Assembly: GCA_963734945.1 (NCBI GenBank)
Contig: CAVTJF010000063.1
Location: 75,496-139,495 of the forward strand
DNA: 64,000 nucleotides
DNA from: an uncultured Gammaproteobacteria bacterium
GTDB taxonomy: Bacteria > Pseudomonadota > Gammaproteobacteria > Xanthomonadales > Rhodanobacteraceae
Direction of reading: 5' to 3'
Shown here: positions 4,680-59,375 of the stretch, piece after piece
How the letters are laid out: every line of letters starts with the position of its first letter
Numbering within the stretch: position 1 is the first letter of the stretch
The notes under the pieces: model-generated
What the model was told of the DNA's origin: nothing
Databases searched by the model: none
What the model saw: only the letters and a program-made list of their open reading frames with translations
Program-made: the position numbers and the translations under genes

Positions 4680-6800
4680 ATGCAGCTTCGTAACCTATTC
4701 ACACTGATCGCTCTTGGCCTTTTGCTGACCGCATGCGGTGGTAGCGGTTCTTCCAGCATTGGCAACACGCCGCCGCCGACACCGGCCATCGTCGCCAACT
4801 TCGATCCGGCCAACAGTGTTATCCCGTTCCCGAACAACCTGCTGTTTTCGGAAACCAAGGATCTCACCCTCAATATTCCGGTGGCCGATCCCACCGACTA
4901 CAGTGATCCGCAGGTTGCGCTGAACGCACTCGACGGCTTCAGCACCGTGGCGCCCTGGAGCACCACGTTTTCCGCTGCACCCGCTCCCACTTCGATCGGG
5001 GCCGGCGTCAATGTGCATGTCTACGAGGTAACGCTGGACCAGCCGGGCGGCAAGGTCACCGGCATTACACGGGAGCTGTCCTCTCCACAGGAGTACGTGG
5101 TTGCCATGGCGCCGTCCGATGCCGACGGCAAGACGCTTGCCATCGTGCCCACCAGCCCGCTCAAGCCCATGACCAGCTACATGGTGGTGCTGACCAACGG
5201 CATCACCGACGACAACGGCAAGCCGGTGACCGCCTCGTTGACCTACACCCTGGCAAAGGGCGCCGGCGCCCTTTGCGTGAACGGCAAGTCCACCAGCGAA
5301 TCGCTCACCGATGACCAGGCCTGCAAGCTGGAGCCGGTGCGGCAGCTGGTCAATTCCCAGGAAGCTGCAGCCGCCGACGAAGGCGTTTCCCGTGCGGACA
5401 TCGTTTTGTCGTGGGTAGCCACGACCGAAAGCACCAACACGGTGCTGGATGCCTTGAGCGCCAAGATCGAGCAGGGCCCTGCCGCGGAAACGCACTTCAT
5501 TCCGACCGGCCAGACGCTGCAGACTGTCGGCGTCGGTGCGCCGATCGCCGATATCTCCATCGGCTACATCAAGCTGCCCTACTATCTGGGTGTGCCTACC
5601 GCGCAGAATCCATTGCCGCCGCTGACCGACTTCTGGCAGGCCGCTCCCGGCGCCTACGTGCCGCCCGCCAGCGGTTTCGGACTCGACCCCACGTCCACCA
5701 ACGTCACGGCCTACAACCCGTTCCCGGTGGCCGACGCCACGGTAGGCGCGCCGCTGCTGGTGACCGTGCCCAACGCCAATTCCGGCAAGTCCCGTCCCGC
5801 GACAGGCTGGCCGGTGGTGATCTTCCAGCACGGCATCACCCGCAATCGCACCGACATGCTGGCGGTGGCGCAAACCCTCGCCTCGCAGGGCTATGCCGTC
5901 ATCGCCATGGATCTGCCGTTGCACGGCGTGGATCCGAGCAACCCGTTCTACATCGGCAACAGCCCGTTCGCAGCCTCCGCCAGCGAGCGCACATTCAATC
6001 TGGATGTGATGAACAACCAGACCGGTGCCCCCGGTCCGGATGGCAACGTCGATGCTTCCGGCTCGCACTTCATCAACCTGCAGAGCCTGCTGACCTCGCG
6101 CGACAATCTGCGCGAGGGCGTGGCCGATCTGGTTGAGCTGGAACACGCCATCGGCAGCATGAATGTCGACGGTCAGCCGGGTGCCGATTTCGATGCCAGC
6201 AAGATCACCTTTGTAGGCCAGTCGCTGGGCGCCATTGTCGGCACCACCTTCATGGCAGTCGACAGCAACGTCCACACGGCACTGCTGAACGTGCCTGGCG
6301 GCGGCATTGCACGCCTGCTGGATGGCTCCGTGTCGATCGGGCCGCAGATTCGCGCCGGCTTGTCGCAGGCGGGCGTCGAGCAGGGCACGCCGGAATACGA
6401 CCAGTTCTTCCTGGCGGCGCAGACCGCGGTGGATTCGGCTGACCCGATCAATTTCGCCCGGTTCACCGGTGGCAAGGCGCTGCTGCTGCAGGAAGTGGTC
6501 GGCAGCGACAGTTCGCCGTCTGATCAGGTGGTGCCCAACAACGTGCCAGGCGCACCGCTTTCGGGTACCGATCCGCTGATCGCGGCGCTGGGCCTGAATG
6601 TCATCGACAGTTCCGCGCAGAGCGCTGATCCGATTCGTGTCGCCACCCGCTTCACCAGCGGCGAGCATGGTTCCCTGCTGGATCCGACCTCGGCACCGGC
6701 GGTCACTGCCGAAATGCAGGGCGAGATGGCCAGCCTGTTCCTGAGCGGCGGGCACGCCGTGCAGGTGACCAATCCCGCGGTACTCAAGCCCGTCGAATAG
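4680..6800 (+). CDS. lipoprotein alpha/beta-hydrolase, probable extracellular lipase/esterase (706 aa)
   Basis: Internal ATG 4680 gives MQLRNLFTLIALGLLLTACGGSGSS, a signal peptide with lipobox LLTAC. FVGQSLGAIVG matches the GxSxG nucleophile elbow. Size and architecture recall VolA/Pla-1-type lipoprotein lipases (from memory, unverified). Confidence 0.7.
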   Translation: MQLRNLFTLIALGLLLTACGGSGSSSIGNTPPPTPAIVANFDPANSVIPFPNNLLFSETKDLTLNIPVADPTDYSDPQVALNALDGFSTVAPWSTTFSAAPAPTSIGAGVNVHVYEVTLDQPGGKVTGITRELSSPQEYVVAMAPSDADGKTLAIVPTSPLKPMTSYMVVLTNGITDDNGKPVTASLTYTLAKGAGALCVNGKSTSESLTDDQACKLEPVRQLVNSQEAAAADEGVSRADIVLSWVATTESTNTVLDALSAKIEQGPAAETHFIPTGQTLQTVGVGAPIADISIGYIKLPYYLGVPTAQNPLPPLTDFWQAAPGAYVPPASGFGLDPTSTNVTAYNPFPVADATVGAPLLVTVPNANSGKSRPATGWPVVIFQHGITRNRTDMLAVAQTLASQGYAVIAMDLPLHGVDPSNPFYIGNSPFAASASERTFNLDVMNNQTGAPGPDGNVDASGSHFINLQSLLTSRDNLREGVADLVELEHAIGSMNVDGQPGADFDASKITFVGQSLGAIVGTTFMAVDSNVHTALLNVPGGGIARLLDGSVSIGPQIRAGLSQAGVEQGTPEYDQFFLAAQTAVDSADPINFARFTGGKALLLQEVVGSDSSPSDQVVPNNVPGAPLSGTDPLIAALGLNVIDSSAQSADPIRVATRFTSGEHGSLLDPTSAPAVTAEMQGEMASLFLSGGHAVQVTNPAVLKPVE

Positions 6801-6819
6801 CATTCGCGAGCTTTCGCTG

Positions 6820-6858
6820 AAAAAACGGCCGCTTCGCAGGAAGCGGCCGTTTTCTTTT
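6820..6858. terminator. bidirectional rho-independent terminator after the lipase gene
   Basis: 11-bp perfect stem ACGGCCGCTTC / GAAGCGGCCGT (6825-6835 / 6840-6850) with a 4-nt loop. An A-run lies on the left and TTTTCTTTT on the right. Confidence 0.8.
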
Positions 6859-6859
6859 G

Positions 6860-7145
6860 GGACCCTCTGATTAACCCTGAGCAGGTGGCATGACGTCCAG
6901 AAAGTCTGCAGTTCGTGCCGCGTGGCGCCGTGCAGGCTGGACTGCCTGGACAAGCCGTGCGGCGCGGAATGCGGGCTTTCTGGGCGTCACCCAGGCGTTC
7001 AGATTCAAAAAGTTGGGCCCATGGTGTCTGTCCACAACCCTGCGTTGCACTGACTTGACAGGCAACCAGCCTGCCTGCGCCAGCGCGTCTTGACTTGCGA
7101 ACAGACACCATGGGTGACACCTGCTCAGGGTTAATCAGAGGGTCC
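6860..7145. mobile_element. MITE-like non-autonomous element (286 bp) with perfect 28-bp terminal inverted repeats
   Basis: GGACCCTCTGATTAACCCTGAGCAGGTG at 6860-6887 is the exact reverse complement of 7118-7145. It is flanked by TTG (6857-6859) and TTG (7146-7148), a possible 3-bp target duplication. There is no credible transposase ORF inside. A nested 14-bp inverted repeat CCCATGGTGTCTGT lies at 7018-7031 / 7101-7114. The element is inserted immediately after a terminator. Confidence 0.6.
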
Positions 7146-7209
7146 TTGTGCGCCAGTCAAGCTGAATAAATACAGGACAAGGCATAATCGGGTAATCCCT
7201 GAATCTGGA

Positions 7210-8043
7210 ATGGTCATGAGTGCAAACAAATCAAGCGGCAGCCTGGTCTGCGTGGGCATAGGCATGACCCTGGGTTCACACATCGGACCGCTCGCTCGCA
7301 GTCATATCGAGCAGGCTGATGTCGTGTTCGTGGCGGCATCCGATGGCGTGGTGGAAAAGTGGGTCGAGGAAATGCATGCGGATGTGCGCAGCCTGCAGCC
7401 GCTTTACGGCAACGGCCGCTCGCGCATGCAGACCTACCACGCCATGATCGATACGCTTCTGGCCGAGGTACGCCAGGGCAGGACGGTGTGCGCAGCCTTC
7501 TACGGGCACCCGGGCGTGTTCGCCTGGCCGGCGCATCGTGCCATCGAGCTGGCCCGCGAGCAGGGCTACGATGCGCAGATGGTGCCGGGAATTTCCGCCG
7601 AGGATTGCCTTTATGCCGATCTGGGAATCGATCCGGGCAAATTCGGCTGCCAGCACTACGAGACGACCCAGATGATGATCTACAAGCGCCGCCTCGATCC
7701 CAGCGCCTATCTGGTGTTGTGGCAGGCGGGCGTGGCCGGGGACCGCAGCCTCAAGCGACTCGAGACTGCCGCCGGCTATCGCCAGATACTGGTGGATTTG
7801 CTGGCGCAGGATTATCCGCTGGATCACCCGGTCATAATCTACCGCGCGGTAACGCTGCCTATTCATGAACCGCGCATGGATACGGTTGCGCTGGCCGATT
7901 TGCCTGGCGCGGATATCGGCATGCAGGATACTCTGGTACTCAAACCCGCCCAGCCAATGCAGCAAAACCGTGAAGTGCGTAGCTGCATTGACAAGCTGGA
8001 TGGGAGCATACTGAAAGGGCTTGGACCGGTCGCAAACGGCTGA
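7210..8043 (+). CDS. borosin-type peptide alpha-N-methyltransferase (tetrapyrrole-methylase fold, OphMA/SonM-like)
   Basis: Motifs match my recollection of the OphMA methyltransferase domain. These are [68 protein letters not shown] and [10 protein letters not shown]. Length is 277 aa, like the stand-alone SonM. Confidence 0.8.
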   Translation: [277 protein letters not shown]

Positions 8044-8056
8044 TTCGGGCAGGGGG

Positions 8057-8082
8057 CGGTCGGTTGCTCGATAAACCGACCG
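8057..8082 (+). promoter_or_regulatory. intercistronic stem-loop between methyltransferase and precursor genes
   Basis: 9-bp stem CGGTCGGTT / AACCGACCG with an 8-nt loop. It is followed about 8 nt later by CTTTTC. It could be a partial terminator or an mRNA-processing or stability element. Confidence 0.3.
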
Positions 8083-8147
8083 ACCGATCCCTTTTCGCCG
8101 CTCCCTGAGGAGTTGGCCCTGACAACATCTCATTTGAGGGAATAACA

Positions 8148-8405
8148 ATGTCCAACCTTATCCGCTTTCTCGAAAATCTTGGCCAGAATGCAAGCATGCG
8201 CCAGGCCACCAAGCCCGCGCTGTACTCGGCCATGAACAATGCGCAGATCGACGCTGATGCCCAGTGGGCCATCTTGCGCGGCGATCAGGATCGGCTGGCG
8301 TCGGTGCTGGATGCACGCCGCAACATGGTCTGTCTGATCATGGCGCCGCAGGCTTACGCCGAAGAGGCTGTGCAGCTGTCTCCGCGCCTTGCCGAGACCG
8401 GCTGA
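8148..8405 (+). CDS. borosin precursor peptide (SonA-like, 85 aa)
   Basis: GAGGGA SD 7 nt upstream of the ATG. The N-terminus MSNLIRFLENLGQNASM resembles the SonA start MSGLSDFFTQLGQDAQL (from memory). A hydrophobic candidate core NMVCLIMAPQ lies near the C-terminus. The gene is directly downstream of the methyltransferase. Confidence 0.7.
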   Translation: MSNLIRFLENLGQNASMRQATKPALYSAMNNAQIDADAQWAILRGDQDRLASVLDARRNMVCLIMAPQAYAEEAVQLSPRLAETG

Positions 8406-8550
8406 ACGCCGGAGATGTGCCGAGCGGCCAGCGAGGCAGAGTCATGGAACACCCTGTGACATCCAACACCAGCATGCGACGCCGGGCAGCTATTCGTCTG
8501 GCGCAGCGTGCTGGTGCTGCTTCTCCTGTGCCCTGTTGCGCTGGGCGCAT

Positions 8551-10248
8551 ATGTCGATCCCGGCGCAGCAGCTGAATCTGGCCGACACGGTCAAGTCGTC
8601 CGATCACGACCAGTTCAAGCAGATTCTTGCCGGACTGGAACAAAGCGCGGGCAGCCTGCCCGAGGACGCCCGCTGGCGTCTGCGCTACCTGCAGGCGTGG
8701 GAGCTGGCCTATCTTGGCCAGTACACCAAGGCATCAAGCCAGCTCAGCCTGATCATGCGGGACTGCCCGAACAGGGATCTGCGCTTTCGAGCGCAAGTCA
8801 CGCAGATGAACATCGATACCGTGTCGCTGCAATACGACAGCGCATTCCAGCGGCTGGTGAAGTTGATCGATGAAGTGCCCGACATCACCAGTACGCAAGC
8901 GCGCACCCAGTTCTACGCGACCGCCGCAATTCTCTACAACAAGGTGGGCGAGTACGACCTTGCCACCTCTGCAGCCGACAAGCTGCTGACCGCCGACAGC
9001 TCCAGCAGCACGCTCTGCAAGGGGCGCTATTTCAAGTTGCTGGCCGCCTACAACAGCGGCCAGTTGAGCACCAGCGACCCCGCTATTGACGTGGCACAGA
9101 CTACCTGTGCCGAGGCGGGCGAGGCGATGCTGGGCAATTCATTGCGCATCCTCCTGGCCAAGCTCGATCTGTCCCGGGGCAACCCGGTATCCGCCCTGGG
9201 CGTGCTGACACCGCACTACCACGAGGTACTCAAGACCGGCTATGCCGAGCTGATCGCCGATTTCGAAGCGGAAATGGCGCAGGCCTACCTGCAGTCGGGC
9301 GATCCGAAAAATGCCGCCATCTATGCGACGCGAGTAGTTGACGCGAGCACCGATCAGGACTACAGCGAAAGCCTGGCCGTGGCCTGCAAGACCCTGTACC
9401 AGATCTACAAGGCGCGTGGTGATACGGCTGCGGCGTTGTCGTGGTACGAGAAGTACACCTCGGCCGACAAGGGTTATCTCAACGAGGTCACCGCCAAGTC
9501 GCTGGCATACCAGAAGGTCAAGCAGCGCGTTCAGGCCAGCCAGGCGCGGACCGATGCCGTGCAGAAGCAGAACCGCATCCTGCAGCTGCAGCAGACGCTT
9601 TCGGAAAAGGTTGCCGAGACCCGCGGCCTGTACGCCACCTTGCTGCTGATTGCCCTGGTGCTGGTTTGCGTGTGGGTGTTGCGCCTTCTGCGCTCGCAGA
9701 AGCGCCTTCGCAAGCTGGCCGAGATTGACAGCCTTACAGGCATCTTCAACCGGCAATACTTCGTCAACGCCGGTGTGCCGCTGCTTGAGGCTTGCAGAAA
9801 AGAGGGCGCCAATGCCAGCCTGATCCTGATCGACCTTGATCATTTCAAGCTGGTCAACGACACCCATGGCCATGCCACCGGCGACGCCGTACTGAAGCGC
9901 ACGGCGCTTGCCTGCCAGGGGCAGCTGCGGTCAAAGGATCTGTTCGGCCGGCTGGGCGGCGAGGAGTTCGGCATCGTCATGCCCAACTGCGAACTGGATA
10001 TGGCGGTCGAGTACGCGGAGCGCATCCGCAGCGCGATTGCCGCGCTGTCCGGCGCCAGCGACGACACGCCCGATGTGACGGCAAGCGTCGGCGTGGCCTC
10101 CACGGCACGGGCCAACTACGATCTGCGCCAGCTGATGATCCACGCCGATGATGCCCTGTATCGGGCCAAGCGTGATGGGCGCAACCGCGTGGCGGTGTCC
10201 GACGGCACCATTTCCATCGTCCGCACGAGCTTCTCCACTGTCGGCTGA
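8551..10248 (+). CDS. membrane-anchored diguanylate cyclase (GGDEF) with large helical/TPR-like N-terminal domain; 5' end uncertain
   Basis: RLGGEEFGIVM active-site motif and EIDSLTGIFNRQYF. One TM (LYATLLLIALVLVCVWVLRLL) precedes the GGDEF domain. 8551 is the first in-frame ATG. The ORF-track start 8389 is a TTG inside the precursor gene. The expected signal anchor lies in other frames (see findings). Confidence 0.8.
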   Translation: MSIPAQQLNLADTVKSSDHDQFKQILAGLEQSAGSLPEDARWRLRYLQAWELAYLGQYTKASSQLSLIMRDCPNRDLRFRAQVTQMNIDTVSLQYDSAFQRLVKLIDEVPDITSTQARTQFYATAAILYNKVGEYDLATSAADKLLTADSSSSTLCKGRYFKLLAAYNSGQLSTSDPAIDVAQTTCAEAGEAMLGNSLRILLAKLDLSRGNPVSALGVLTPHYHEVLKTGYAELIADFEAEMAQAYLQSGDPKNAAIYATRVVDASTDQDYSESLAVACKTLYQIYKARGDTAAALSWYEKYTSADKGYLNEVTAKSLAYQKVKQRVQASQARTDAVQKQNRILQLQQTLSEKVAETRGLYATLLLIALVLVCVWVLRLLRSQKRLRKLAEIDSLTGIFNRQYFVNAGVPLLEACRKEGANASLILIDLDHFKLVNDTHGHATGDAVLKRTALACQGQLRSKDLFGRLGGEEFGIVMPNCELDMAVEYAERIRSAIAALSGASDDTPDVTASVGVASTARANYDLRQLMIHADDALYRAKRDGRNRVAVSDGTISIVRTSFSTVG

Positions 10249-24914: not shown

Positions 24915-26495
24915 CTAGCGCCCCAGGGCATGGCGCAGCGGGTCGAGCAGTTCGCCGTAGCGTTCACTGATGGCGCTGCCCCGCTGCAACGGCTTGCGCA
25001 CCTGGGTCGCACTCAGCGTGCGCACGATGTCGGTGCTTTTTTCCGGGTGCAGGCAATCGTCCTCGAACGGCAGATCACAGAACTGCAAAAGCTCGCGAAT
25101 GGTCTGCTCGGAATCGTCCAGCAGGTTTTCGTAGCTGAAATCCATCACCCGATCGGGAAAGCTGTCCCGCCAGTGGCGACAGGCGCGATCGAAGTCGCGC
25201 CAGTGCGCGGCTATGGACTCGAAGTCGTAGGAGAACAGCTGATTCTGGTAGCTGAAGCGGTTGCGCCAGCAGGAAAAGCCCACTTCGACGGGATCACGCC
25301 GGCACACCACGATGCGTGCGTCGGGCAGCATGGCCAGCGCCGCCCCTGCGAACAGCCAGTTGCCGGGGCGCTTGTCGGTGACGACGGGCAGACTCTCCAG
25401 TCCGCTGCGTGCGCGTTCCAGATAAACCTCGCCCAGCCGCTGCCATTCGCCGCGGCTCATGTTCTCCAGCGCCTGTGGGTAGGTGCCGCCACGGCGCTCG
25501 GCCATGTCGTGCAGCAGCCGGCCCAGCACATCCAGCTCACCTCCGGCAACAACCTCCGAATGCATGCCCAGAATGCGCTCGGTCAGTGACGTACCCGATC
25601 GCGGCAGGCCGACAATGAAAATGACACGCGGGGCAGTCGCCGGCTTTTCCGGTACCTTCCACGGTGTGGCGATCACCTTGTCGACGGTCTCACTGAAATT
25701 GGCTGCGTCCCAGGGCTTGCGTTCGCGCAGGAGGCTGTTGGCCTGCTGCCACGCCGCAAATGCCTCGGGGTACTGCTTCTTGTCGTGCAGGGCCTGGCCA
25801 AGTGCATAGTTGAGCGCGATGCGATCACCGGGGTCGGCAATGGTGCCCGCGAGCAGACCTTGCATCGTCTCGATGTCGCTCTGCTCGAGCAGGCCGGATT
25901 TCAGTTGCGCCAGACCCATCCAGACTTCGCCGTCGTCCGGGCGCTGGGACAGGAGAATGCGGTATTGCTCAGCGGCTGCTTCCACTTCGCCCGAGACGGT
26001 CAGCGCATACGCCAGGCTGAAACGCGCCTGGCTGAGGTTCTCCTGCAATGCGACCGCCTTGCGCAATGGCTCGACCGATTCAGTGACGCGGTTGCTGTCG
26101 ATCAGTGCCTTGCCCAGGTTGTTCCACAGGGGCGCCGACTGCGGAGCCAGGTCGCAGGCGCGCTGCAGCTCGGACAGCCCCTGTTCCTGCTGTCCCGCGT
26201 TCAGTTGCGCCAGGCCCAGGCTGGAGGCCACCAGCGGGTCGCGTGGCGCCATCGTGCGTGCGCGCTCCAGTGTTTCGATCGCCGTTTCGTGGCGACCGCT
26301 CATGCGTTGCGCCATGCCGGTCAGGCGCAGCAGATCGGCGTCGTCCGGCGCGCGCCGGAGGAGGCGTTCAAAACGACGTCGGGCAATTTCCACCTGACCT
26401 GAATGCAGGGCTTGCACGGCCTGGGCTGCCGCGGGCCGCAGATTGTCGGGCAGGGAGGCGAAGAGCGATGGCTGGCTGGTCTGTTTCTGGTTCAT
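24915..26495 (-). CDS. TPR-repeat sulfotransferase family protein
   Basis: Start re-set to ATG 26495 (MNQKQTSQ). The N-terminal half has TPR-like repeats. The C-terminal half has FIVGLPRSGTSLTERIL, a 5'-PAPS-binding loop. Confidence 0.8.
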   Translation of the reverse strand: MNQKQTSQPSLFASLPDNLRPAAAQAVQALHSGQVEIARRRFERLLRRAPDDADLLRLTGMAQRMSGRHETAIETLERARTMAPRDPLVASSLGLAQLNAGQQEQGLSELQRACDLAPQSAPLWNNLGKALIDSNRVTESVEPLRKAVALQENLSQARFSLAYALTVSGEVEAAAEQYRILLSQRPDDGEVWMGLAQLKSGLLEQSDIETMQGLLAGTIADPGDRIALNYALGQALHDKKQYPEAFAAWQQANSLLRERKPWDAANFSETVDKVIATPWKVPEKPATAPRVIFIVGLPRSGTSLTERILGMHSEVVAGGELDVLGRLLHDMAERRGGTYPQALENMSRGEWQRLGEVYLERARSGLESLPVVTDKRPGNWLFAGAALAMLPDARIVVCRRDPVEVGFSCWRNRFSYQNQLFSYDFESIAAHWRDFDRACRHWRDSFPDRVMDFSYENLLDDSEQTIRELLQFCDLPFEDDCLHPEKSTDIVRTLSATQVRKPLQRGSAISERYGELLDPLRHALGR

Positions 26496-26636
26496 GTGCT
26501 GTAAGCGGGTTCCTGTTGGTGAGGCATCCATATGTCTCGGCGTGGGGCCGATGGCGATGCGGTATCGGCTTGTCGCAGGGCAACGGCGGAATGGGCCAGG
26601 CACAGCGCCGACGCCGGCAATACGCGCATCAAGGCC

Positions 26637-31825: not shown

Positions 31826-34186
31826 TCAGTGCCGCATCGACTCGGGCAGGCTGAAATGGAAGCCTTCGGGCGGGGTCTTGCCGGCCAGATAGCGCACGAA
31901 ATAGTCCCAGCGGCGGCGGGTGCTGTACATGGTGCCGGCCATGCCGTAACCGTGGCGTGCGTTGGGGATGATCAGCATGTCGAAGTCCTTGTTGGCCTTG
32001 ATCAGGGCCTGCACCACCAGCATGGTCTCGCCGACCGGCACGTTGTCGTCGATCTGGCCGTGCACCAGCATCAGGCGTCCCTGCAGATTCCTGGCGACAT
32101 CCTGGTTGGCCTGGTTGTCGTAGTTGTCGCCACCGTCCTTGTTCCGGACCAGCAGGCCCTGGTACTTCTCGCCCCAGTCATTCTCGTAGTTGCGGTTGTC
32201 GTGGTTGCCGCTCTCGGCCCAGCCGACCTTGAACAGCTTCGGGTAGCGGAACAGGGCGTCGGCGGTGGCGTTGCCGCCACCGGAATGGCCCCAGATGCCG
32301 ACCCTGTCGATGTCGATCCAGCGGTTGCGTTGCGCCAGCTGCCTGATGGCAGCGACCTGATCGGGCAGGGTGTTGTCGCCCATGTCGCCGTACCAGGTGT
32401 CGTGGAATGACTTGGAGCGCCACGGTGTGCCCATGCCGTCTATCGCCACCACGATGAAGCCCAGTTCCGCCAGCGCCTGATGCGAGCTGCGCGGCGGCAG
32501 GAAGCTGCGCCCGCGAACCGAGCCGGTCTGCGGGCCGGGGTAGATGTAGTCGATGATCGGGTACTTCTTTTTCGGGTCGAAATGAGTCGGCTTGAACATC
32601 ATGCCGTACAGGTCGGTCTTGCCGTCGCGGGCCTTGACCGTGAAGGGCACCGGCGGACGCCAGCCGCTGGCGAAAAGTCGCGTGGTATCGGCGCGGGCGA
32701 TCTGCTTGATCACATGGCCGTCTTCGGCATCGCGCAGCACCGTCACCGGGGCCGTGGTGCGGGTGGAGTAGGTATCCACGAAGTAGCGTCCGTCCGGCGA
32801 CATCTTGATGCTGTGATCGGCCTTTTCAGGCGTCAGCAGCACCGGCTTGCCGGCATCGATGCCGACTTTCCAGAATTGCCGGTAGTAGGGATTGACGCCC
32901 GGGGTGCGACCGGTGGCATCGAACCAGAGCGTGCGCGTGTCGCGGTCGACATGCAGCACCTGTGCCACGGTGCCGCTGCCGCTGGTGATGGCGCGCTTGA
33001 TCGTGCCATTGCCCAGATCGTACAGATACAGGTTGCCCCAGTCGGTCTTCTCGGAGAACCAGATGGCTTCGCCGGTCGCGGGGAGGTACTGCCAGTCGAC
33101 CATGCCGCGACCGCTCTCGTAAAACGTCTTGACGCTGTCCTCGAACGCGGTACGCACGGCGCCGGTGGCTGCATCGGCTACCCGGAACCATTCATGCTGT
33201 CGATCACGGGAGGAATTCACCATCGCCAGTGTCTTGCTGTCGGCGGCCCACTTGACGTCGTCCCAGGTGCCATCGCGGTCGCAATCCAGGTCATCGCAGA
33301 GGCTGGACAGGCGTTGCTGCGGCGGCAGTTTCAGGCGCACCATCTTGTGGCTGACCACATCGATCACCAGCGGCTCGATCATGAAGATCTTGTCGTCGCC
33401 CGGCAGCGGGTATTTCCATTGTTCCAGCTCGGGATGGCCAACCCTGGTGTTGACGGTGTACATCTCGCCCACGCCGCGCTGGTCCTGGCGGTAGGTGGCG
33501 ATCTGCGTCGAGTCCGGCGACCAGGTGACAATGGCGCGGTCCGAATGCAGCCAGCCGGCATTGTCGGTGGCGTAGCCGTAGTCCTTGACTCCGTCGGTGG
33601 TCAGCTGGCTCTCCTTGCCGGTGGCCACATCCCGCACCCACAGGTTCCAGTCGCGGACAAAGGCTTCCTTCTTGCCATCCGGTGACAAGCGCCCGGGTTC
33701 ATCGCCCGGGGCCGGTTCACCCTTGGCGGGCTTCGCTGCGGCCTTGGCCGTGCATGCGCTCTTGCCGGGCAGGTCACACAGGAAGTGCTTGCCGTGCACC
33801 GAGACATCGTAGGTGCCCTGGTCGGTAACACTGAAATCGCTGATCGGCAGTTTGTCGGCCTTCAGCGGTTTGTCCAGCATCTTGCCCAGTGCGTTGGCCA
33901 TCTTCTCCTGATCGAACGCCGGGCTGATGCTGCCGCTGGCGGCATCGACGGCAAGGAAATGGTCGCCCCTGGCGTCGTGTTCGACGTACCAGAAATGACT
34001 GTCGTCCACCCAGGTCACGCGGCTGACCACATGATCCAGCAGTGGCCGGGTGTTGATGGCGAGCAGTTTCTCGGCGTGCTGGTAGTCCTTGAGTGACAGC
34101 GACTGGGTCTGGGCGGCAGCCGACAGCGGCGATGCGGACAGTGCTGCGGCGACCAGCAGATGCGGCCAGATTGGATGCGTTCTCAT
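31826..34186 (-). CDS. S9-family dipeptidyl-peptidase IV / prolyl oligopeptidase-type serine peptidase
   Basis: Start re-set to ATG 34186 (MRTHPIWPHLLVAAALSASPLSAAAQT signal peptide) with GGGGAGAA upstream. DPP-IV-like beta-propeller half, then the catalytic GIWGHSGGGNAT (GxSxGG). Confidence 0.9.
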   Translation of the reverse strand: MRTHPIWPHLLVAAALSASPLSAAAQTQSLSLKDYQHAEKLLAINTRPLLDHVVSRVTWVDDSHFWYVEHDARGDHFLAVDAASGSISPAFDQEKMANALGKMLDKPLKADKLPISDFSVTDQGTYDVSVHGKHFLCDLPGKSACTAKAAAKPAKGEPAPGDEPGRLSPDGKKEAFVRDWNLWVRDVATGKESQLTTDGVKDYGYATDNAGWLHSDRAIVTWSPDSTQIATYRQDQRGVGEMYTVNTRVGHPELEQWKYPLPGDDKIFMIEPLVIDVVSHKMVRLKLPPQQRLSSLCDDLDCDRDGTWDDVKWAADSKTLAMVNSSRDRQHEWFRVADAATGAVRTAFEDSVKTFYESGRGMVDWQYLPATGEAIWFSEKTDWGNLYLYDLGNGTIKRAITSGSGTVAQVLHVDRDTRTLWFDATGRTPGVNPYYRQFWKVGIDAGKPVLLTPEKADHSIKMSPDGRYFVDTYSTRTTAPVTVLRDAEDGHVIKQIARADTTRLFASGWRPPVPFTVKARDGKTDLYGMMFKPTHFDPKKKYPIIDYIYPGPQTGSVRGRSFLPPRSSHQALAELGFIVVAIDGMGTPWRSKSFHDTWYGDMGDNTLPDQVAAIRQLAQRNRWIDIDRVGIWGHSGGGNATADALFRYPKLFKVGWAESGNHDNRNYENDWGEKYQGLLVRNKDGGDNYDNQANQDVARNLQGRLMLVHGQIDDNVPVGETMLVVQALIKANKDFDMLIIPNARHGYGMAGTMYSTRRRWDYFVRYLAGKTPPEGFHFSLPESMRH

Positions 34187-34308
34187 GGTTCTCCCCGGTG
34201 GTTTGTACCGATCACAAGCCACCATCCTAGCGCCCAGCGCCCCGGCCCGCCCCTGCCAGAAGTCCATCCAGCCACCTGTCCCCGGGAAACGCCGCAAGTC
34301 GGCGCGGA

Positions 34309-39152: not shown

Positions 39153-40364
39153 CTATTTGACCAGCTGGTTGAGGTTGAACACCGGCAGCAGGATGGCCAG
39201 CACGATGAACAGCACCATCGCGCCGACGATCAGAATCAGCGCGGGGCCCAGCACGGCGGTGAGAACGGCAAGAACCCGTTCCAGCTGGCGGCTGCAGTAG
39301 CCCGATGCTTCCATCAGCATGCGTTCCAGCGCACCGGCGCGTTCACCGGCGGCGATCAGGCGCAGGGCCACCGGCGGAAACTGGCCGCTGTCATCCAGGG
39401 CACGCGCCAGCGAGGCACCTTCGCGCACCTTTCCCGCGGCGTCCTCGACCGACCGGCGCATGGCCAGATTGGGGACCACCCGGGCGGTGATCTTCAGTGC
39501 TTCCAGCAGCGGTACGGCGCTGGCAGTGAGCAGCGCCAGGGTGCGGGTGGCGCGTGCCGTCCCGGCCACCTTGAGGAGGTGTCCCAGGCCCGGCAGCTCC
39601 AGCAGCCAGGCGTCGCGACGCTGGCGCCAGACCTTGCCCCGCAGCAGCAGACGAATGCCGGCGGCCACTCCGATCAGCAGCAACAGCAGCCAGATGCCGT
39701 AGGCGCGCAGGAAGGCACTGCCGGCGAGCAGCGCCCGCGTGCTCCAGGGCAGATCCTGGTGCATGCGCACGAATACCTCGGCAATCTGCGGCACCACGTA
39801 GATCAGCAGACCACTCACCACCAGTATCGCGACGATGGCCAGCAGCAGCGGGTATGCCAGTGCCGCCCAGATGCTCTGGCGCATGGCGTCGCGTGATTCG
39901 GCCTCGTCGGCCAGCAGGCCGAGCACGCCATCCAGTTTGCCCGAGCGTTCTCCGGCCGCTACCGAAGCGCGGTACAACTCGGGGAAACTGCGGGGGTGGT
40001 CGGCCATCGCCTCGGCCAGGCTGGCGCCTTCCATCACGCGCGCACGCAAGCCCAGCACCAGGCCGCGCATGCGTGCATCCGATCCGCGTTCGGCCATCGC
40101 CCCCAGCGCTTCGTCAATCGGCAGGCCGGCCCCGAGCAGGGTGGCCAGTTCGCGCAGCAGCAGGGCGCGCCGTGCGCCGTTGAGTACCGCGCGCGAGCCG
40201 AAGCGGCTGCCCGCATCGCTCTGCGCCGCCACCTCGTCGACGCTGACCGGCACCAGCCCCCGCTCGCGCAGCAACTGCCGCGCACCACGCACCGTATCGG
40301 CCTGCAGCACACCGCGGTCGGTGTGGCCGTCTGCCTTCAGTGCCTGGTAGGAAAATGCCGGCAT
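39153..40364 (-). CDS. gspF: type II secretion system inner-membrane platform protein GspF
   Basis: Start re-set to ATG 40364 (MPAFSYQALKADGHTDRGVLQADT). Two GspF repeats and three TM helices. Confidence 0.9.
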   Translation of the reverse strand: MPAFSYQALKADGHTDRGVLQADTVRGARQLLRERGLVPVSVDEVAAQSDAGSRFGSRAVLNGARRALLLRELATLLGAGLPIDEALGAMAERGSDARMRGLVLGLRARVMEGASLAEAMADHPRSFPELYRASVAAGERSGKLDGVLGLLADEAESRDAMRQSIWAALAYPLLLAIVAILVVSGLLIYVVPQIAEVFVRMHQDLPWSTRALLAGSAFLRAYGIWLLLLLIGVAAGIRLLLRGKVWRQRRDAWLLELPGLGHLLKVAGTARATRTLALLTASAVPLLEALKITARVVPNLAMRRSVEDAAGKVREGASLARALDDSGQFPPVALRLIAAGERAGALERMLMEASGYCSRQLERVLAVLTAVLGPALILIVGAMVLFIVLAILLPVFNLNQLVK

Positions 40365-40380
40365 GGCTGACGGGCTCCGA

Positions 40381-41856
40381 TCACTGCTCGCGGGTAACGC
40401 GCAAGACTTCTTCGACGCTGGTGAGGCCGGCGCTGGCGACGCGCCAGCCGTCGTCGACGATGGACGGTGACTGGCCGCGCGCGTGGCGCTCGAGCTGCGC
40501 TTCGGATGCGCCATCGTGGATCAGGGCGCGCATGGTTTCGTCCACCGGCACCAGTTCGTAGATGCCGCTGCGACCCCGGTATCCGCTGGTGCGCTCGCCG
40601 CCGTCGCCGGGCCGGAACAGGGTCGTGCCCGCGTCGCTTTCGGGCCGGCCGAAGGCAGCCAGTTCGGCGTCACCGGCCGGGTAGGGCTGGCGCGTATCCG
40701 GGTCGAGCCGGCGCACCAGGCGCTGCGCCAGCACGCCGATCAGGCTGGATGCCAGGAGGAACGGTTCGACGCCCATGTCGCGCAGGCGGGTTACGGCGCC
40801 GACCGCCGAGTTGGTGTGCAGGGTGGAAAGCACCAGGTGTCCGGTGAGCGAAGCCTGTACTGCAATCTCGGCGGTCTCGAGATCACGGATCTCGCCGACC
40901 ATGACCACGTCCGGGTCCTGGCGCAGGATGGCGCGCAGACCACGCGCGAAGGTCATGTCCACGCGCGTGTTGACCTGGGTCTGGCCGATGCCGTCGAGAT
41001 AGTATTCGATCGGGTCCTCGACCGTCATGATGTTGCGGCTGCTGTCGTTGAGACGACTGAGCGCGGCGTACAGCGTGGTGGTCTTGCCCGAGCCGGTGGG
41101 ACCGGTGACCAGGATGATGCCGTGCGGACGCTCGAGCATGTGCTCCAGCCGCTGGCGGGTCGGTCCGTCCATGCCCAGCTCGGTCAGGTCCAGGCGCCCG
41201 GCCTGCTTGTCCAGCAGGCGCAGTACCACGCGCTCGCCGTGGCCGCCGGGGATGGTGGAAACGCGCACGTCCACCGGGCGACCGGCAATCTTCAGGCCGA
41301 TGCGGCCATCCTGCGGCAGACGCCGCTCGGCGATGTCCAGCCGCGCCATGACCTTGATGCGGCTGACCAGGGCATTGGCCAGTGCGCGCGGCGGGGTGAG
41401 CACTTCGCGCAGCACGCCGTCGACGCGGAATCGCACTACCAGGCGCGACTCGAAAGGCTCGATGTGGATGTCCGAAGCGTTTTCGCGCACCGCCTCGGCC
41501 AGCAGCGCATTGATCAGCCGGATGACCGGGGCGTCATCCTCGCTTTCCATCAGGTCCTGCGGCTCGGCCAGCTCCTCGGCCAGCGAGGCCAGGTCGGTTT
41601 CGCTGTCGAGGTCGGCGCTGAGCGCACTGGCGTCGCCGCCCTGCTGGTACAGATCGCGCAGGGTTCTGCTCCAGGCGTCCTTGTCCAGGCGCGCCACGCG
41701 GATGGGCACCCCCAGGTGGCGACGCAGCTCGGCCAGCGCACTGCTGTCGGCATCGGCGCGGCAGGCGACGTCGGCATGATCGCCGTGCCAGGCGGTCATG
41801 GTCACGCCCAGTCGGCGGGCGAAGCCGTATCCGGGGCGGGCGGGTGCCTCGCTCAC
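40381..41856 (-). CDS. gspE: type II secretion system ATPase GspE
   Basis: Walker [16 protein letters not shown], Asp box, IMVGEIRD, His box LVLSTLHTN. The GTG start overlaps the gspD stop (GTGA). Confidence 0.95.
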
Positions 41857-43910
41857 GGCTTGCGACCGGCCTTGTCGGCAGCAGTGGCGGGTGCCGGATC
41901 GGCGAGGAAGTCGTGCACGGCCGGCAGCAGCGGGCGCTCGTCACGCGGCGTCAGCAGCGCGCGGTTGTCGCGCAGCTTCAACTGCTCGGTGCGCATGTAA
42001 TTGTATTTTTCGCTGGACACGGCCTGCTCGGTGGCCGCATCGCGCAGGATCTTCGGGTGCAGGAACACCATCAGGTCCTGCTTCTCGTTCTTGTTGCTGC
42101 GGTAGCGGAACAGGTTGCCCAGGAGGGGAATGTCACCCAGCAGGGGTACCTTGCGATTGGTGTCGCTGGTGTTGTTGGATATCAGCCCGCCGAGCACCAG
42201 CATGGCGTCGTCGGCTACCAGCACCGAGGTCTTCACTTCACGCTTGTTGGTGATCAGGTCGACGGCGCCGCTGACCTGCGGCGCCAGCGAGGACAACACA
42301 TAGTGGATGTCCATGCGCACCGCGTCGCCTTCGTTGATGTGCGGGGTGACGGTGAGGGTCAAGCCCACGTCTTTTCGCTCGATGGTCTGGAACGGGTTCT
42401 GCGGCTGGCTGGTGCCGCCGGCATTGGTGCTGGTGTACTGTCCGGTCTTGAACGGCACCTCCTGCGCCACCTTGATTACCGCTTCCTGATTGTCGAGGGT
42501 CAGAATGCTGGGCGTGGACAGGACATTGCTGTTGCCGTCGCCTTGCAGTGCCCGTATCAGGGCGCCGACCTGCAGGATCGGCGTGTCCGAGCCGGGCAGG
42601 GTGACCGAGCCGTTGAGATAGCCGAGGTTGAGGCCACCGGCCAGCGCGCCGGCCAGGTTGTTGGGGTCGGCCAGGCTCAGGATATTGCCCTGGCCGTTGG
42701 GGCCGGTGAAGTTGGTGCCACCGATGACCGAATCCTTGAGGCTGCCGTCCGCATTGGTCTTCAGCGGCAATTGCCACTGCACGCCGATCTCCTTGGCCGT
42801 GCTCAGACCCACCTCGGCAATCACCGCCTCGATCAGGACCTGGGCGCGGCGGATGTCGAGCTGGCGGACGACCGCCTGCAGGGAACGGAATACGGCCGGG
42901 GATGCGGTGATCACCAGCGCATTGGTTTTCTCGTCGGCCTGGATGGTGGTTGACTCCTTGTCGGCGCCACCAGCGGCTGCCGGCGCCTTGGCGGTGCCGG
43001 CGGCGCGTGCGTCGCTGCCTTCGAGATCGCGCGCCACGCCCGACAGGATCGGCACCAGGTCCTTGGCATTGGCGTAGTTGAGGTACACCACCTGGGTGGC
43101 GCCGCCCGATTGCAGCGGCGTGTCCAGATTGGTGATCAGGGTGCGCATGGCCAGGCGCCGGCTCTTGCTGCCCGAGAGCAGGATGGAGTTGGTGCGCTCA
43201 TCGGCCATCACGTTGATGCCGTTGGGCCCCTTGTCCGCGCTGTTGCCATCCAGACGGGTGAGGGTGCGCGCCACTTCGGAGGCGTTGGCATGCTGCAGCG
43301 GAATCACCTCGACGTGGGCGTCGCTGGCGGTGTCGACCCGGGCAATGATGCGCTCCAGCCGATGCACCACCGAGGCGCGGTCGGACAGGATCAGCGAGTT
43401 GCTCGGCCCGTGCGCCACCACCTGGCCGCCCTGCGGCACGAACTGCTGCAGCAGCGTCGCCAGTTCAGGAGCCGACACGTAATGCACCGGCACCACCTGG
43501 GTCACCAATCCGTTGCCCTGGGGAAGTTTCGAGTCCACCGGCACGGCGCCATCGCCACGTGCGCTGGCCTGGCTGACGATTTTCACCATGCCGTCGCCGG
43601 CGGGCAGGGTGACGTAGCCGTGCACCGCCAGTACCTGCTGGAACACCTGGTAGATCTGCTCGGCATCCAGCGGTTTTTGCGACACCACCGTGACCTTGCC
43701 CTGCACATTGGGGCCGAGGATGAAGTTCTTGCCGGTGATCTCCGACACCGTGGCCACCAGGGCCTGGATGTCGGCATCCTTGAGGTTGAGCATCTGCGGC
43801 CCGCTGACCTTGGCGCCGGTCTTGTCCGCGGCTGGCGACTGGGCAGCAGCGGGCATCGCCAGCGGCAACAGCAGCAGTGCAAGAATCAGGTTCTGGATAG
43901 TGCGACGCAT
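41853..43910 (-). CDS. gspD: type II secretion system secretin GspD
   Basis: Signal peptide [25 protein letters not shown]0-N3 domains, and a secretin domain reading [15 protein letters not shown]. Confidence 0.95.
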
Positions 43911-43928
43911 GGTGTTATTCCCGATGGT

Positions 43929-44900
43929 TCATTGGCCCTTGCTCAGATCGATATCGATCGTCTGTGGCTGGCCGTTGCGCTGTATGGTCAGTTGTACGTG
44001 TTTGGCGTTGCGCAGTTGTTGAAACAGTTGCTGGCCGCGGGCAATGGAGTCCAGATGAATGCCGTTGACCGCAGTCACCACGTCGTCCGCACCCAGCCCG
44101 TATGCCGCAGCCAGCGGGTTGCTGGCGCCGCCACCCAGGCGTACGCCACGCAACTCGCCGTCGCTGAATACCGGTTGCAGCTGCATGTTGGCGACGGCCC
44201 TGGCCGGGTCGCGTTGAAACTCCGACTGTACCTGCTGCCAATTGACGCGGCCACCGCTTATGCGCGGTGCCACGTATATGGGCGTTGTCGCACCGGCGCC
44301 GGTCGAGCGTCCGGCTTGCGACCCGCCACTGTTGGTCAGGGTGCCGCCACTGTGACCCAGGGGCTGCACCGATGATGCACTGTCCAGTGACTCGCGCGGC
44401 AGGTCCAGGCGCTCGTTGCGGCCATTGTGCTCCAGCACCACATGGTCGGCGCGCACCGCCTTCAGGCTGACCCCCTGCTGGATGCGGTCGCCTACCCGGT
44501 AGCTGTGCTCCGTGCCATTGGCATCGGCGATCAGTGCGTAGCCTCCCTCACCCTGGCCTGCCGACACGGTGCCATGCAGGGTCAGTTTCAACTGGGTCGC
44601 CTGGCCCGCTTCCATGATGTCGCGCCTGAGCGCGTTGGCATTGCCATTGCCAAAAAGGTGCCAGCGACTGATGTCGCCCTGGGTGCTGTCGGCTTGTGCA
44701 ATCGGGGCGCTGGCCGGCATCGGGGAGAGTTCCGGGGTCAGCGGAGTGAACAGCGACCAGGCCAGTTGCACCAGCATCCAGATGCACAGCAGTCCGGCCA
44801 GCAGCACGGCCGACCATGCCAGCACGGTCGGCAGCCGTGACGGCAAGGATGTTCCTGCGTTCGGGTTTGCAGCGCGCATCAGCCCTGCCCTCGGCGTCAT
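43929..44900 (-). CDS. gspC: type II secretion system protein GspC (TM + HR + PDZ)
   Basis: N-terminal TM (VLAWSAVLLAGLLCIWMLV) and a C-terminal PDZ-like segment (GVRLGG...GLGADDVVTAVNG). Positioned immediately upstream of gspD. Confidence 0.75.
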   Translation of the reverse strand: MTPRAGLMRAANPNAGTSLPSRLPTVLAWSAVLLAGLLCIWMLVQLAWSLFTPLTPELSPMPASAPIAQADSTQGDISRWHLFGNGNANALRRDIMEAGQATQLKLTLHGTVSAGQGEGGYALIADANGTEHSYRVGDRIQQGVSLKAVRADHVVLEHNGRNERLDLPRESLDSASSVQPLGHSGGTLTNSGGSQAGRSTGAGATTPIYVAPRISGGRVNWQQVQSEFQRDPARAVANMQLQPVFSDGELRGVRLGGGASNPLAAAYGLGADDVVTAVNGIHLDSIARGQQLFQQLRNAKHVQLTIQRNGQPQTIDIDLSKGQ

Positions 44901-51365: not shown

Positions 51366-51887
51366 TCAGCTGCGCGACGGATAGAGCCCGACCAGGGCGA
51401 TGATGAAATTCATGCTCAGGTAGGGCTGGCGATTGTTGTGGGCCTGCGACCCGCCCTGGTTGTCGAGCATCGGACCCATCGGTGTCAGCGGTGTGCCGCT
51501 GCCCTGGGGCGCAACATACAACTGCGTGCCCCTGGCCAGGAAGTTGTTGCCCACCTGGCGCTGATTGGCGGTTTCATTGACGCCCTGCATGGCGTGCGAG
51601 TGCTGTGGCATCTGTGCTTCGCTGAGCGTGACCGAATCAACGCCGCCGCGCTCGCCCAGCCTGCGGTCCGTCAGTCCCGGTCCGCGTCCCGGGTGCATCG
51701 GCGCACGTCCCTGCAGGTCCGGTAGCGCGGTGGTCGTGGGGCCGTCACCACCATAGGTGGTACCGAGCAGGCTGAACAGGGCCGTATTCTGGGAAACCGG
51801 CAGCAGCTGGCCGTTGCAGAAGGCCCAGCCGCGCGGCGCGAAATTGCCGGCGAAGATGCGTACTTCAGCGATGAAGGGTTCCGACAT
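51366..51887 (-). CDS. phage-tail-collar-domain protein (MdpB/COG4675-like), paralog 3
   Basis: MSEPFIAEVRIFAGNFAPRGWAFCNGQLLPVSQNTALFSLLGTTYGGDG...NFIIALVGLYPSRS. AGAGGA SD upstream. Confidence 0.85.
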   Translation of the reverse strand: MSEPFIAEVRIFAGNFAPRGWAFCNGQLLPVSQNTALFSLLGTTYGGDGPTTTALPDLQGRAPMHPGRGPGLTDRRLGERGGVDSVTLSEAQMPQHSHAMQGVNETANQRQVGNNFLARGTQLYVAPQGSGTPLTPMGPMLDNQGGSQAHNNRQPYLSMNFIIALVGLYPSRS

Positions 51888-51898
51888 GGCTGGATCCT

Positions 51899-52418
51899 CT
51901 AGGTTCGCGACGGGTAGATGCCGAACAGCGCAATGATGAAGTTCATGCACAGGAACGGCATCACGTTGGTGTGCGATCGGCTGCCGCCGATGGGGGCAAT
52001 GGTCTCGCTGGCCATCTGCAGCACCGGCGGCGGCCGCGGATTGAGGTAGTCGGCCGAACCGGTGCCCGGCACATTGCCGCCCGGGTCGACGCTGGTGGCC
52101 GTGCCCGCGCTGCCGTGCGCCGGATGCGAGTGCGAGGGCAAGCTGGTTGACGGTCAAGGTCACTGATTCCGATCCGCCCTTCGCGCCAAGGCGGCGGTCG
52201 GACAGCCCCGGACCCTGGCCGGCATGCACCGGAAGCCGCCCACGCATGTCCGGTAGCCCGAAGGTGGTGCGACCATCACCACCGTAGATCGTGCCGAGCA
52301 GGCTGAACAGGGCGTCGTTCTGCGACACCGCCAGCAGCTGGCCGTCACAGAAGGCCCAGCCGCGCGGGGCGAAGTTGCCGGCAAACATGCGGATTTCTCC
52401 AACAAACGGTTCGGACAT
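51899..52418 (-). pseudogene. phage-tail-collar-domain protein, paralog 2, disrupted by a 1-nt frameshift near 52140
   Basis: 93 N-terminal codons (…VTLTVNQL) are in one frame. The conserved C-terminal part (PSHSHPAHGS…NFIIALFGIYPSRT) is in the next frame. The span is 520 nt, which is 3n+1. Removing one T of CAGCTTGCC restores VNQLPSHSH. Confidence 0.75.
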
Positions 52419-52430
52419 CTCGGGGACTCC

Positions 52431-52934: not shown

Positions 52935-52997
52935 TGTCCTTGCTCCGTGGTTGCGTTCGCACGCGTTTCATGGGTTCTGTCATTTGCCTGCTGCACC

Positions 52998-58937: not shown

Positions 58938-59375
58938 CCGTTGTCCCCTGTCGAAACCGGCCTCGCGATGCAGCGCGATGCAACATCCCCATGACACGTC
59001 CGCCCCGGTCCGTTGCAAAAAGGCAGGCCGACGATGACGCCCGAGGCGAACGACTTTACACCCAGACGGGCTCGCATCGCCAATTGTTGCTCGGGCCCGT
59101 TGTTGATGCATTGGGGGGGAGGATGTTGAGCTGGCGGCGTGCCGGCACGCTCGCTCTTCTGCTTGCGTCATGTGCACCGTGTACTTCAGCGTTGTCAGCA
59201 CGGCGGGGCAACGCGCTTGTCCGCATGCCGGTCGAACCGGTCACGGCGGTGGAACCCGACGCGCTGTCCCGAGGAACCCGTGTCGCGAAACGCCGACTCG
59301 GCTGCGGGTGCAGGGCCGGGGCGCGACAGGCGCTACACTTTGCGCAACGAGCACGGCGAGCCAGGGAAACCAACG

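Follow-up and report, generated by a model that had tools for sequence, protein, structure and literature searches.

A Probable Type IV Split Borosin Module with a TPR-GGDEF Gene in a Rhodanobacteraceae-Like Gammaproteobacterium

Introduction

Does a short pair of genes in the genome of an uncultured, Rhodanobacteraceae-like gammaproteobacterium encode a peptide that is N-methylated on its backbone, and if so, what might such a peptide be for? The question was raised by a stretch of 64,000 nucleotides of contig CAVTJF010000063.1 (the whole of which is called the window below), for which an initial annotation, made from the letters alone, had proposed a split borosin gene pair, that is, an OphMA/SonM-like methyltransferase followed by a separate SonA-like precursor. 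Methylation of backbone nitrogens gives peptides pharmacological value and, to our knowledge, borosins are the only ribosomal route to it. From the analyses reported here, we conclude that the locus is very probably a type IV ("split") borosin module, made of three genes and working by homology with the SonM–SonA pair.

SonM and SonA belong to the son cluster (SO1478–SO1481) of Shewanella oneidensis MR-1 (PDB 7LTC/7LTE; product shewanellamide A), which is composed of SonM, SonA, a GGDEF protein, and an efflux pump (PMC10549244). The initial annotation presented split borosins as a recently defined class, which understates how well the class is surveyed: thousands of clusters are catalogued, one survey listing 2,699 methyltransferases and 3,064 predicted precursors (bioRxiv 10.1101/2024.01.09.574750), and Xanthomonadales alone represent 22.5% of borosin methyltransferase hits (bioRxiv 10.1101/2021.12.24.474128). 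With so many clusters known, and many of these found in the same order of bacteria, the pair is in itself unsurprising. The locus adds to them an uncharacterised type IV pair whose core, containing a Cys and a Pro, is unlike those of the studied Shewanella examples, and its strict three-gene order makes it a simple system for asking what borosins do and why GGDEF genes travel with them.

A Discrete Methyltransferase of the SonM Type

The two open reading frames (ORFs) of the proposed pair exist as annotated, both on the forward strand, at 7210–8043 (277 amino acids) and 8148–8405 (85 amino acids). Compared with their counterparts in two syntenic relatives, L005 and L006, they differ at the first/second/third codon positions by 20/14/69 and 19/9/68 nucleotides for the methyltransferase and by 9/2/22 and 12/7/24 nucleotides for the precursor. 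Because the differences lie mostly at third positions, both are coding sequences under purifying selection and not chance ORFs. The methyltransferase could also start at a second ATG (7216), which would give a protein of 275 amino acids; this is the start chosen by the gene callers in L005, in L006, and in L001, a contig 99.3% identical overall to the window, with six single-base insertions or deletions (indels) in 14 kb.

The only Pfam domain of the 277-residue protein is the generic TP_methylase (4.3e−22), a family name that by itself leaves room for an enzyme of tetrapyrrole metabolism. A search of PDB sequences was far more specific. SonM was the best match (E-value 2.6e−68, residues 10–256 against SonM 2–251), the fused fungal enzymes OphMA, dbOphM, and MroMA were found at about 1e−47, and the first tetrapyrrole enzyme, a precorrin-2 methylase, reached only 2e−4, so that the best matches are not CobA/precorrin methylases. 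Similarly, the NCBIfam models for precorrin, siroheme, and YabN enzymes gave 12–38 bits against cut-offs of 163–525, the highest score being 38 bits against 525 (YabN) and the others 12–23 bits against 163–400.

The window enzyme and SonM are 46% identical over 244 aligned residues. The SonM residues Y58, R67, Y71, Y93, F99, E146, and W166, which matter according to mutagenesis and crystallography (PMC8429565), are all conserved, as Y66, R72, Y76, Y98, F104, E151, and W171, respectively. The loop onto which the leader docks is also kept (AANLPIQAP at SonM 208–216, AVTLPIHEP in the window enzyme), and the protein contains both YGHP and DCLxAD (here DCLYAD), two motifs that have been used as borosin markers (bioRxiv 10.1101/2021.12.24.474128). 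Homology extends to the enzyme domain of OphMA/dbOphMA, the fungal type I borosins (omphalotin), with GSLxxVGxG, FYGHPGVF, and AEDCLxADLxIDP as common motifs. The five motifs singled out in the initial annotation occur in the order given there, starting at residues 10, 66, 97, 125, and 168, and the two longest OphMA motifs that it quoted proved exact (OphMA 96–146). Like SonM, with which it shares its catalytic/lock residues and its size (~265–277 amino acids), the enzyme is discrete and has a single domain, without a fused binding domain, core, or extra domain. Judged from its sequence, it is a borosin α-N-methyltransferase of the SonM/OphMA type.

A Precursor with a SonA-Like Leader

The precursor gene is separated from the methyltransferase gene by 104 nt (8044–8147) and is preceded, 6 nt upstream of its ATG, by the Shine-Dalgarno sequence GAGGGA (8136–8141), both as initially described. 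Its 85-residue product starts with MSNLIRFLENLGQNASM and includes NMVCLIMAPQ. The first 55 residues (8148–8312) are those that correspond to the borosin-binding domain of SonA. In a pairwise BLASTP comparison, residues 1–53 aligned without gaps with residues 1–53 of SonA (26% identity, E-value 7e−5); the N-terminus of SonA, as quoted initially in support of this likeness, is exact (PDB 7LTC chain B).

A word-indexed homologue search returned only four close relatives of the precursor, from Rhodanobacteraceae metagenome bins. When a profile built from five close sequences was run against 1.84 billion cluster representatives, 278 representatives were matched (E-value ≤ 1e−3), from which it follows that the four relatives under-represent the family. 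Among the best 150 of these 278, which were inspected, most proteins are small (66–155 amino acids), the five longer ones being GNAT fusions. Family members share a common layout, MSNVIxFLExxGQDAxLRxA ... LLGAxxNVCC, then a few hydrophobic residues, a Pro, and a tail that is either acidic or rich in Lys and Pro. In some family members of the fused kind (P0227, P0263, P0267, P0271, and P0274), a GNAT-like acetyltransferase precedes the binding domain and the core, and the tails are basic and Lys/Pro-rich (PKKAPAKK-type) rather than acidic; GNAT-precursor fusions are mentioned in the RODEO borosin paper.

An alignment of 96 family sequences (A4), searched against the PDB, retrieved SonA chains only (E-values 8e−7 to 3e−6, positions 1–57, ungapped), the next match having an E-value of 0.29. 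With the same alignment, AlphaFold gave a confident model of the leader, with a predicted local distance difference test (pLDDT) score above 90 for residues 1–50 and of 80 for residues 51–60. The predicted helices (3–13, 15–18, 22–31, 36–44, and 47–53) match the five-helix borosin-binding domain of SonA (residues 1–53), and the C-terminus is disordered. A model computed earlier from a shallow alignment of five sequences was poor (pLDDT 60.5) and was discarded. Compared with 350,542 PDB chains by Foldseek, the model had SonA as its 22 top matches (template modeling score, normalised on the target, up to 0.78; root-mean-square deviation 2.1 Å).

The BLASTP and profile comparisons bear out the identities that had been proposed for the two genes, and the match to SonA answers the objection that the small ORF might have no likeness to borosin-binding domains. 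Together with the predicted fold, they support the assignment of the 85-residue protein as a SonA-like precursor whose N-terminal borosin-binding domain (1–55) keeps the register of its SonA counterpart.

Residues 56–67 (ARRNMVCLIMAP; 8313–8348), which represent in the window the family motif LLGAxxNVCC(hydrophobic)P, form a conserved hydrophobic segment and are the predicted site of backbone N-methylation. R57, R58, M60, V61, C62, L63, M65, A66, and P67 are invariant in the close homologues. In the 96-sequence alignment, Cys62 is present in 89 sequences; 54 sequences have the Pro at position 67, and 29 have it at 66. Unlike the core of SonA (SYLVISHGNGD), that of the window combines a near-invariant Cys with a Pro, after which comes a tail of 18 residues. 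When the ungapped alignment of the leaders is extended, C62-L63-I64-M65-A66-P67 of the window precursor stand opposite Y62-L63-V64-I65-S66-H67 of SonA, and the hydrophobic VCLIM is in register with SonA L63 and I65, its hydrophobic segment (residues 61–65) occupying the same place. In SonA it is L63 and I65 that carry the methyl groups and, by this register, L63 and/or M65 are the likeliest methylation sites of the window precursor. SonA tolerates a Met at position 65, and in SonA and OphMA variants the residue directly before a Pro is not methylated (PMC11751858), for which reason methylation of A66 is unlikely. Cys62 itself (8331–8333) lies just before the predicted methylation site; it is often doubled (CC in 52/96 sequences), there is none in SonA, and it could undergo a second modification, form a disulfide, or act as a recognition element.

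A Conserved Three-Gene Unit

The initial annotation treated the locus as a pair and overlooked a third gene (8444–10248), the first codon of which lies 38 nt beyond the stop codon of the precursor. This gene encodes a TPR-transmembrane-GGDEF protein, a diguanylate cyclase by its Pfam matches (GGDEF, 2.3e−42, plus TPR). Its topology and motifs were read from the intact orthologue in L001 and then mapped onto the window. The L001 protein has a signal peptide or first transmembrane segment (residues 15–33), a periplasmic region of ~360 residues, a second transmembrane segment (397–415), and a GGDEF domain with a GGEEF active site and an RSKD inhibitory site. In the window, the second transmembrane segment lies at 9634–9690, the GGDEF domain at 9718–10188, GGEEF at 9955–9969, and the RSKD I-site at 9928–9939.

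The same order, lipase, methyltransferase, 85-residue precursor, TPR-GGDEF, Mpo1-like gene, and purC, is common to L001, L005, and L006, and the synteny of the module extends to L008. To look further, we scanned a genome collection containing one genome per species with an alignment as query, which identified at least 583 methyltransferase relatives, the best 80 of which were analysed; an earlier scan of the same collection with peptides of the window methyltransferase had found no relative, and the species of the window is apparently missing from it. Almost all of the best 80 carry the label of a Lysobacterales genus or bin (among others Rhodanobacter, Dyella, Frateuria, Luteibacter, and Arenimonas), and their methyltransferases are at most 69% identical to that of the window. 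Among these 80, a precursor ORF with a binding domain follows on the same strand in all 74 loci that offer enough sequence, and a homologous TPR-GGDEF gene follows the precursor in 65/65 loci. Conversely, a precursor ORF with a binding domain lies immediately ahead of 83 of the 86 TPR-sensor genes. In a survey of split borosin clusters, GGDEF came first among the co-occurring domains, with 56% of clusters containing it (bioRxiv 10.1101/2021.12.24.474128). We conclude that the locus is a three-gene unit (methyltransferase, precursor, and TPR-GGDEF) and not a bare pair.

Two or three sensor genes are present in 12 of the 80 loci (L010, L012, L013, L020, L022, L024, L026, L030, L040, L054, L071, and L084). 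Eight of them (L010, L012, L013, L020, L024, L026, L040, and L084) have two or three precursors behind a single methyltransferase. As for the other four, L022 contains a second methyltransferase and L030 a third sensor, and just one precursor was detected in each of L054 and L071. From this pattern, precursor and sensor seem to be duplicated together, as a cassette. A second precursor with a binding domain was looked for in the window and none was found.

In its layout the module resembles the son cluster, with the order methyltransferase, precursor, and GGDEF protein and no protease in the cluster; unlike the son cluster, it has no equivalent of the cation-efflux gene SO1481. The relationship with OphMA is more distant in organisation. 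The window binding domain has its counterpart in part of the OphMA clasp, and in the fungal protein enzyme, clasp, and core form one autocatalytic polypeptide, the product of which is macrocyclised by the prolyl oligopeptidase OphP; by contrast, the window genes are split, with no dedicated peptidase linked to them. In type X borosins, which are mostly from Xanthomonadales, a GGDEF-TPR membrane protein is fused to the methyltransferase. The window locus associates a TPR sensor, a GGDEF domain, and a borosin methyltransferase as type X does, and within the same taxonomic order, differing in that the GGDEF gene is separate and downstream of the precursor. As far as can be read from sequence, the locus displays all the defining features of a type IV split borosin.

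Several points weigh against this assignment. In the enzyme, the top-clamp residue Q178 of SonM is replaced by an Arg, and the side clamp is three residues shorter than that of SonM. Taken alone, the 85-residue protein matched nothing in Pfam, NCBIfam, or PDB sequences; its leader is only 26% identical to that of SonA, a relationship missed by single-sequence search, and the link to SonA is made by that pairwise match, the profile, and the predicted fold. The Foldseek E-values (0.4 or above) are not significant alone, a weakness expected for ~50 residues. As the initial annotation had noted for protease and exporter, neither of these is encoded within ~14 kb, and the same holds for a GNAT acetyltransferase. 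The literature searched held no experimental data on the pair itself or on a closely related Lysobacterales pair, nor did our search find a paper characterising a Rhodanobacteraceae borosin pair. Finally, the sensor gene is frameshifted in the window and, if the frameshifts are real, the module may be decaying here (see below).

What the Module May Make and Do

If the proteins act as their Shewanella homologues do, the methyltransferase, presumably as a homodimer, would dock the N-terminal five-helix binding domain of the precursor, and the hydrophobic segment V61–M65 would thread into the active-site channel. There, methyl groups of S-adenosylmethionine would be transferred to backbone amide nitrogens, with Y66, R72, and Y76 stabilising the deprotonated amide. 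Maturation would be carried out by a protease encoded elsewhere and could follow either of two routes. A fragment with the methylated residues may be released, as for shewanellamide, since the product of S. oneidensis retains its methylated residues (PMC10549244). Alternatively, as in the SamA1/SamP system, the precursor may be cut before Pro67 once it is methylated, with release of the tail.

Taken to its conclusion, the second route would mean that a single backbone methylation within CLIMA is a mark for the protease and that the product is the unmethylated tail headed by Pro67, PQAYAEEAVQLSPRLAETG, a possibility worth keeping in mind that we nevertheless consider somewhat unlikely. The initial annotation had named NMVCLIMAPQ as a candidate core followed by an acidic tail; the sequence is as stated, the tail proved weakly acidic, and the product could instead be the part after Pro67. 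The model for such logic is the SamM1/SamA1/SamP system of Shewanella amazonensis, in which shewasin A is the borosin peptidase: SamA1 is methylated on F52 and cut by the pepsin-like enzyme between F53 and P54, whereby its acidic tail is freed (bioRxiv 10.1101/2024.01.09.574750). The family to which the window precursor belongs has the same succession of binding domain, hydrophobic stretch, Pro, and acidic tail, M65 is one residue short of adjoining Pro67, like the methylated Phe52 with respect to Pro54 in SamA1, and some relatives carry a PF13302 acetyltransferase, which is also a component of the sam cluster. Substitutions point in the same direction, the methylation segment being conserved and the tail fast-evolving. 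In a comparison of window 8313–8402 with L005 and L006 at 8001–8258, core residues 56–67 show four synonymous and no non-synonymous changes relative to L005 (6/2 relative to L006), against one synonymous and three non-synonymous (3/10 relative to L006) in residues 68–85 (QAYAEEAVQLSPRLAETG), which with the stop codon occupy 8349–8405 and are predicted to be disordered (pLDDT < 65). On the other hand, the net charge after C62 is only −2, against a family median of −4, the tail is much less acidic than in the sam system, and neither a pepsin-like A1 peptidase (PF00026) nor a PF13302 acetyltransferase was found in the window. For the peptidase, the 64 kb were covered by a crude two-motif D[TS]G scan and 21 neighbouring or distal ORFs by Pfam; published work allows for a distally encoded peptidase. 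The comparison was made with the published description of SamA1.

The constancy of the third gene brings in another explanation, namely that the module is a signalling device in which the methylated peptide, or the precursor, is a ligand or regulator of the adjacent TPR-GGDEF sensor, with cyclic di-GMP (c-di-GMP) as output. The arguments for it are the position of 83 of 86 sensors directly behind a precursor, the multiple sensors in 12/80 loci, the gap of only 38 nt between the two genes, the share of GGDEF among split borosin clusters cited above, and the location of shewanellamide A, which is found in the cell pellet and not in the supernatant (PMC10549244). However, adjacency and co-duplication indicate shared inheritance, not binding. 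The predicted location of the TPR domain is the periplasm, whereas the precursor lacks a signal peptide and there is no gene for an exporter nearby. A PDB search with the TPR sensor domain found no informative relative. With these arguments on either side, we regard such a link to c-di-GMP as unlikely, though worth stating. An extension of the same idea, more speculative and in our opinion unlikely too, is that the unit consists of a precursor and its own TPR-GGDEF receptor, one methyltransferase serving several such cassettes, and that the methylated peptide, or the fast-evolving tail released from it, is a self-made ligand that its cognate periplasmic TPR sensor would convert into a c-di-GMP signal. 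Adjacency, cassette duplication, and the contrast between a conserved core and a quickly diverging tail speak for it, but a periplasmic sensor would call for an export route, of which there is no sign in the window. Were this true, split borosins would be signalling peptides rather than antibiotics.

The sensor gene also bears on whether the type IV module is still complete in this strain. It contains two 1-nt insertions, at 8495 and 8559, which are found in the window only and are absent from L001, L005, and L006. As a result, no two of the start codon (8444), the hydrophobic signal segment (LFVWRSVLVLLLLCPVALGAYVD), and the body of the gene share a reading frame. These frameshifts represent either an assembly error or an inactivation in this strain. 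The module might accordingly be in decay here, with a sensor that has lost its signal peptide next to an intact methyltransferase and precursor. We consider this improbable: assembly errors are possible, comparison with L001 alone cannot tell which of the two sequences errs, the remainder of the sensor is identical to L001 at 563 of 565 residues, and the methyltransferase and precursor are under purifying selection. An IMS/DinB translesion polymerase gene, which lies at 1–899 of the window (reverse strand), is split into two ORFs in L001 (587–1677), with single-base indels between window and L001 at 273 and 285; indel differences between the two sequences therefore run both ways.

Least probable of all, to the point of being negligible, is that the locus encodes an ordinary tetrapyrrole (CobA/CysG/precorrin) or YabN methylase next to an unrelated small protein or LigA-like subunit, for although TP_methylase is the sole Pfam match, homologues are publicly annotated as "precorrin-3B/6B methylase" or "YabN", and SonA itself was deposited as a "LigA domain-containing protein", the tetrapyrrole models score far under their cut-offs, SonM is matched at 2.6e−68 against 2e−4, a precursor with a binding domain is always adjacent, the neighbours of the methyltransferase are a lipase, a GGDEF protein, an Mpo1-like protein, and purC, with no cobalamin or siroheme genes and no LigB in the neighbourhood, the precursor does not match PF07746 even at E-values up to 1 whereas SonA just reaches it, LigAB (1bou_A) ranks 28th in the Foldseek comparison, and no dioxygenase family was found among the scanned neighbouring ORFs.

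Surroundings of the Module

The 104-nt region between the two first genes contains, as initially annotated, a perfect 9-bp stem (CGGTCGGTT/AACCGACCG, at 8057–8065/8074–8082; stem-loop 8054–8085), and its RNA fold has a predicted energy of −43.4 kcal/mol (z-score −2.96). We rejected the stem-loop as a regulatory element, the arms not being complementary in L005 and L006. The 3' half of the intergenic region is a different matter. The 51 nt immediately upstream of the precursor start (8097–8147) are almost invariant in the window, L005, and L006, and more conserved than both the adjoining coding sequence and the preceding stem-loop. In the predicted fold, CUCCCUGAGGAG... pairs with the Shine-Dalgarno region. 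This segment may serve the precursor as its promoter or in the control of its translation; a promoter and terminator scan of 6780–8600 gave nothing useful.

Upstream of the module, a miniature inverted-repeat transposable element (MITE)-like sequence had been noted, and we confirmed it at 6860–7145. It is 286 bp long, and its terminal inverted repeats, of 31 nt each, show 97% complementarity. The repeat occurs as a single pair in the 64 kb, with 0 matches expected by chance. The element lies between the terminator hairpin of the lipase gene (6822–6853) and the region upstream of the methyltransferase gene, and is flanked on both sides by TTG, which has the appearance of a target duplication of 3 bp. 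L001 carries the element as well, and L005 and L006 have empty sites directly after the lipase terminator. Because these two relatives are syntenic and lack it, the element is a recent, lineage-specific insertion, unrelated to the origin of the module; it is a neighbour with no functional part in it, and its role as a vehicle of the gene pair is ruled out.

The lower GC content attributed to the pair is real but modest. The first 60 nt of the precursor gene contain 31 G or C (0.517), as counted initially, and the pair as a whole has a GC content of 0.610, against a window mean of 0.656 (standard deviation 0.021), which places it at the 1.7th percentile among 1196-bp windows. Recent horizontal transfer was considered as an explanation and rejected, as the dip is small and the module, which keeps its synteny in relatives, is found widely across the order.

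Farther along the window, four other loci are worth recording. A TPR-repeat protein fused to a sulfotransferase domain is encoded at 24915–26600 (reverse strand). An S9 family peptidase (DPPIV_N plus Peptidase_S9, of the prolyl oligopeptidase family, which cleaves after proline) is found at 31826–34294 (reverse strand), ~23 kb from the pair; it is probably a housekeeping enzyme, without evidence of a link to the precursor. Type II secretion genes (GspF, GspE, the secretin GspD, and GspC) lie at 39.2–44.9 kb (39153–44897, reverse strand). Lastly, the region 51366–59201 (reverse strand) contains adjacent ORFs of 350 and 167 amino acids, both starting with MSEPF..EIRM..NFAPRGWAFCDGQ, next to an ORF of 2067 amino acids with a very high GC content at third codon positions. 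The two shorter proteins presumably resemble phage tail-collar or microcystin-dependent-protein domains.

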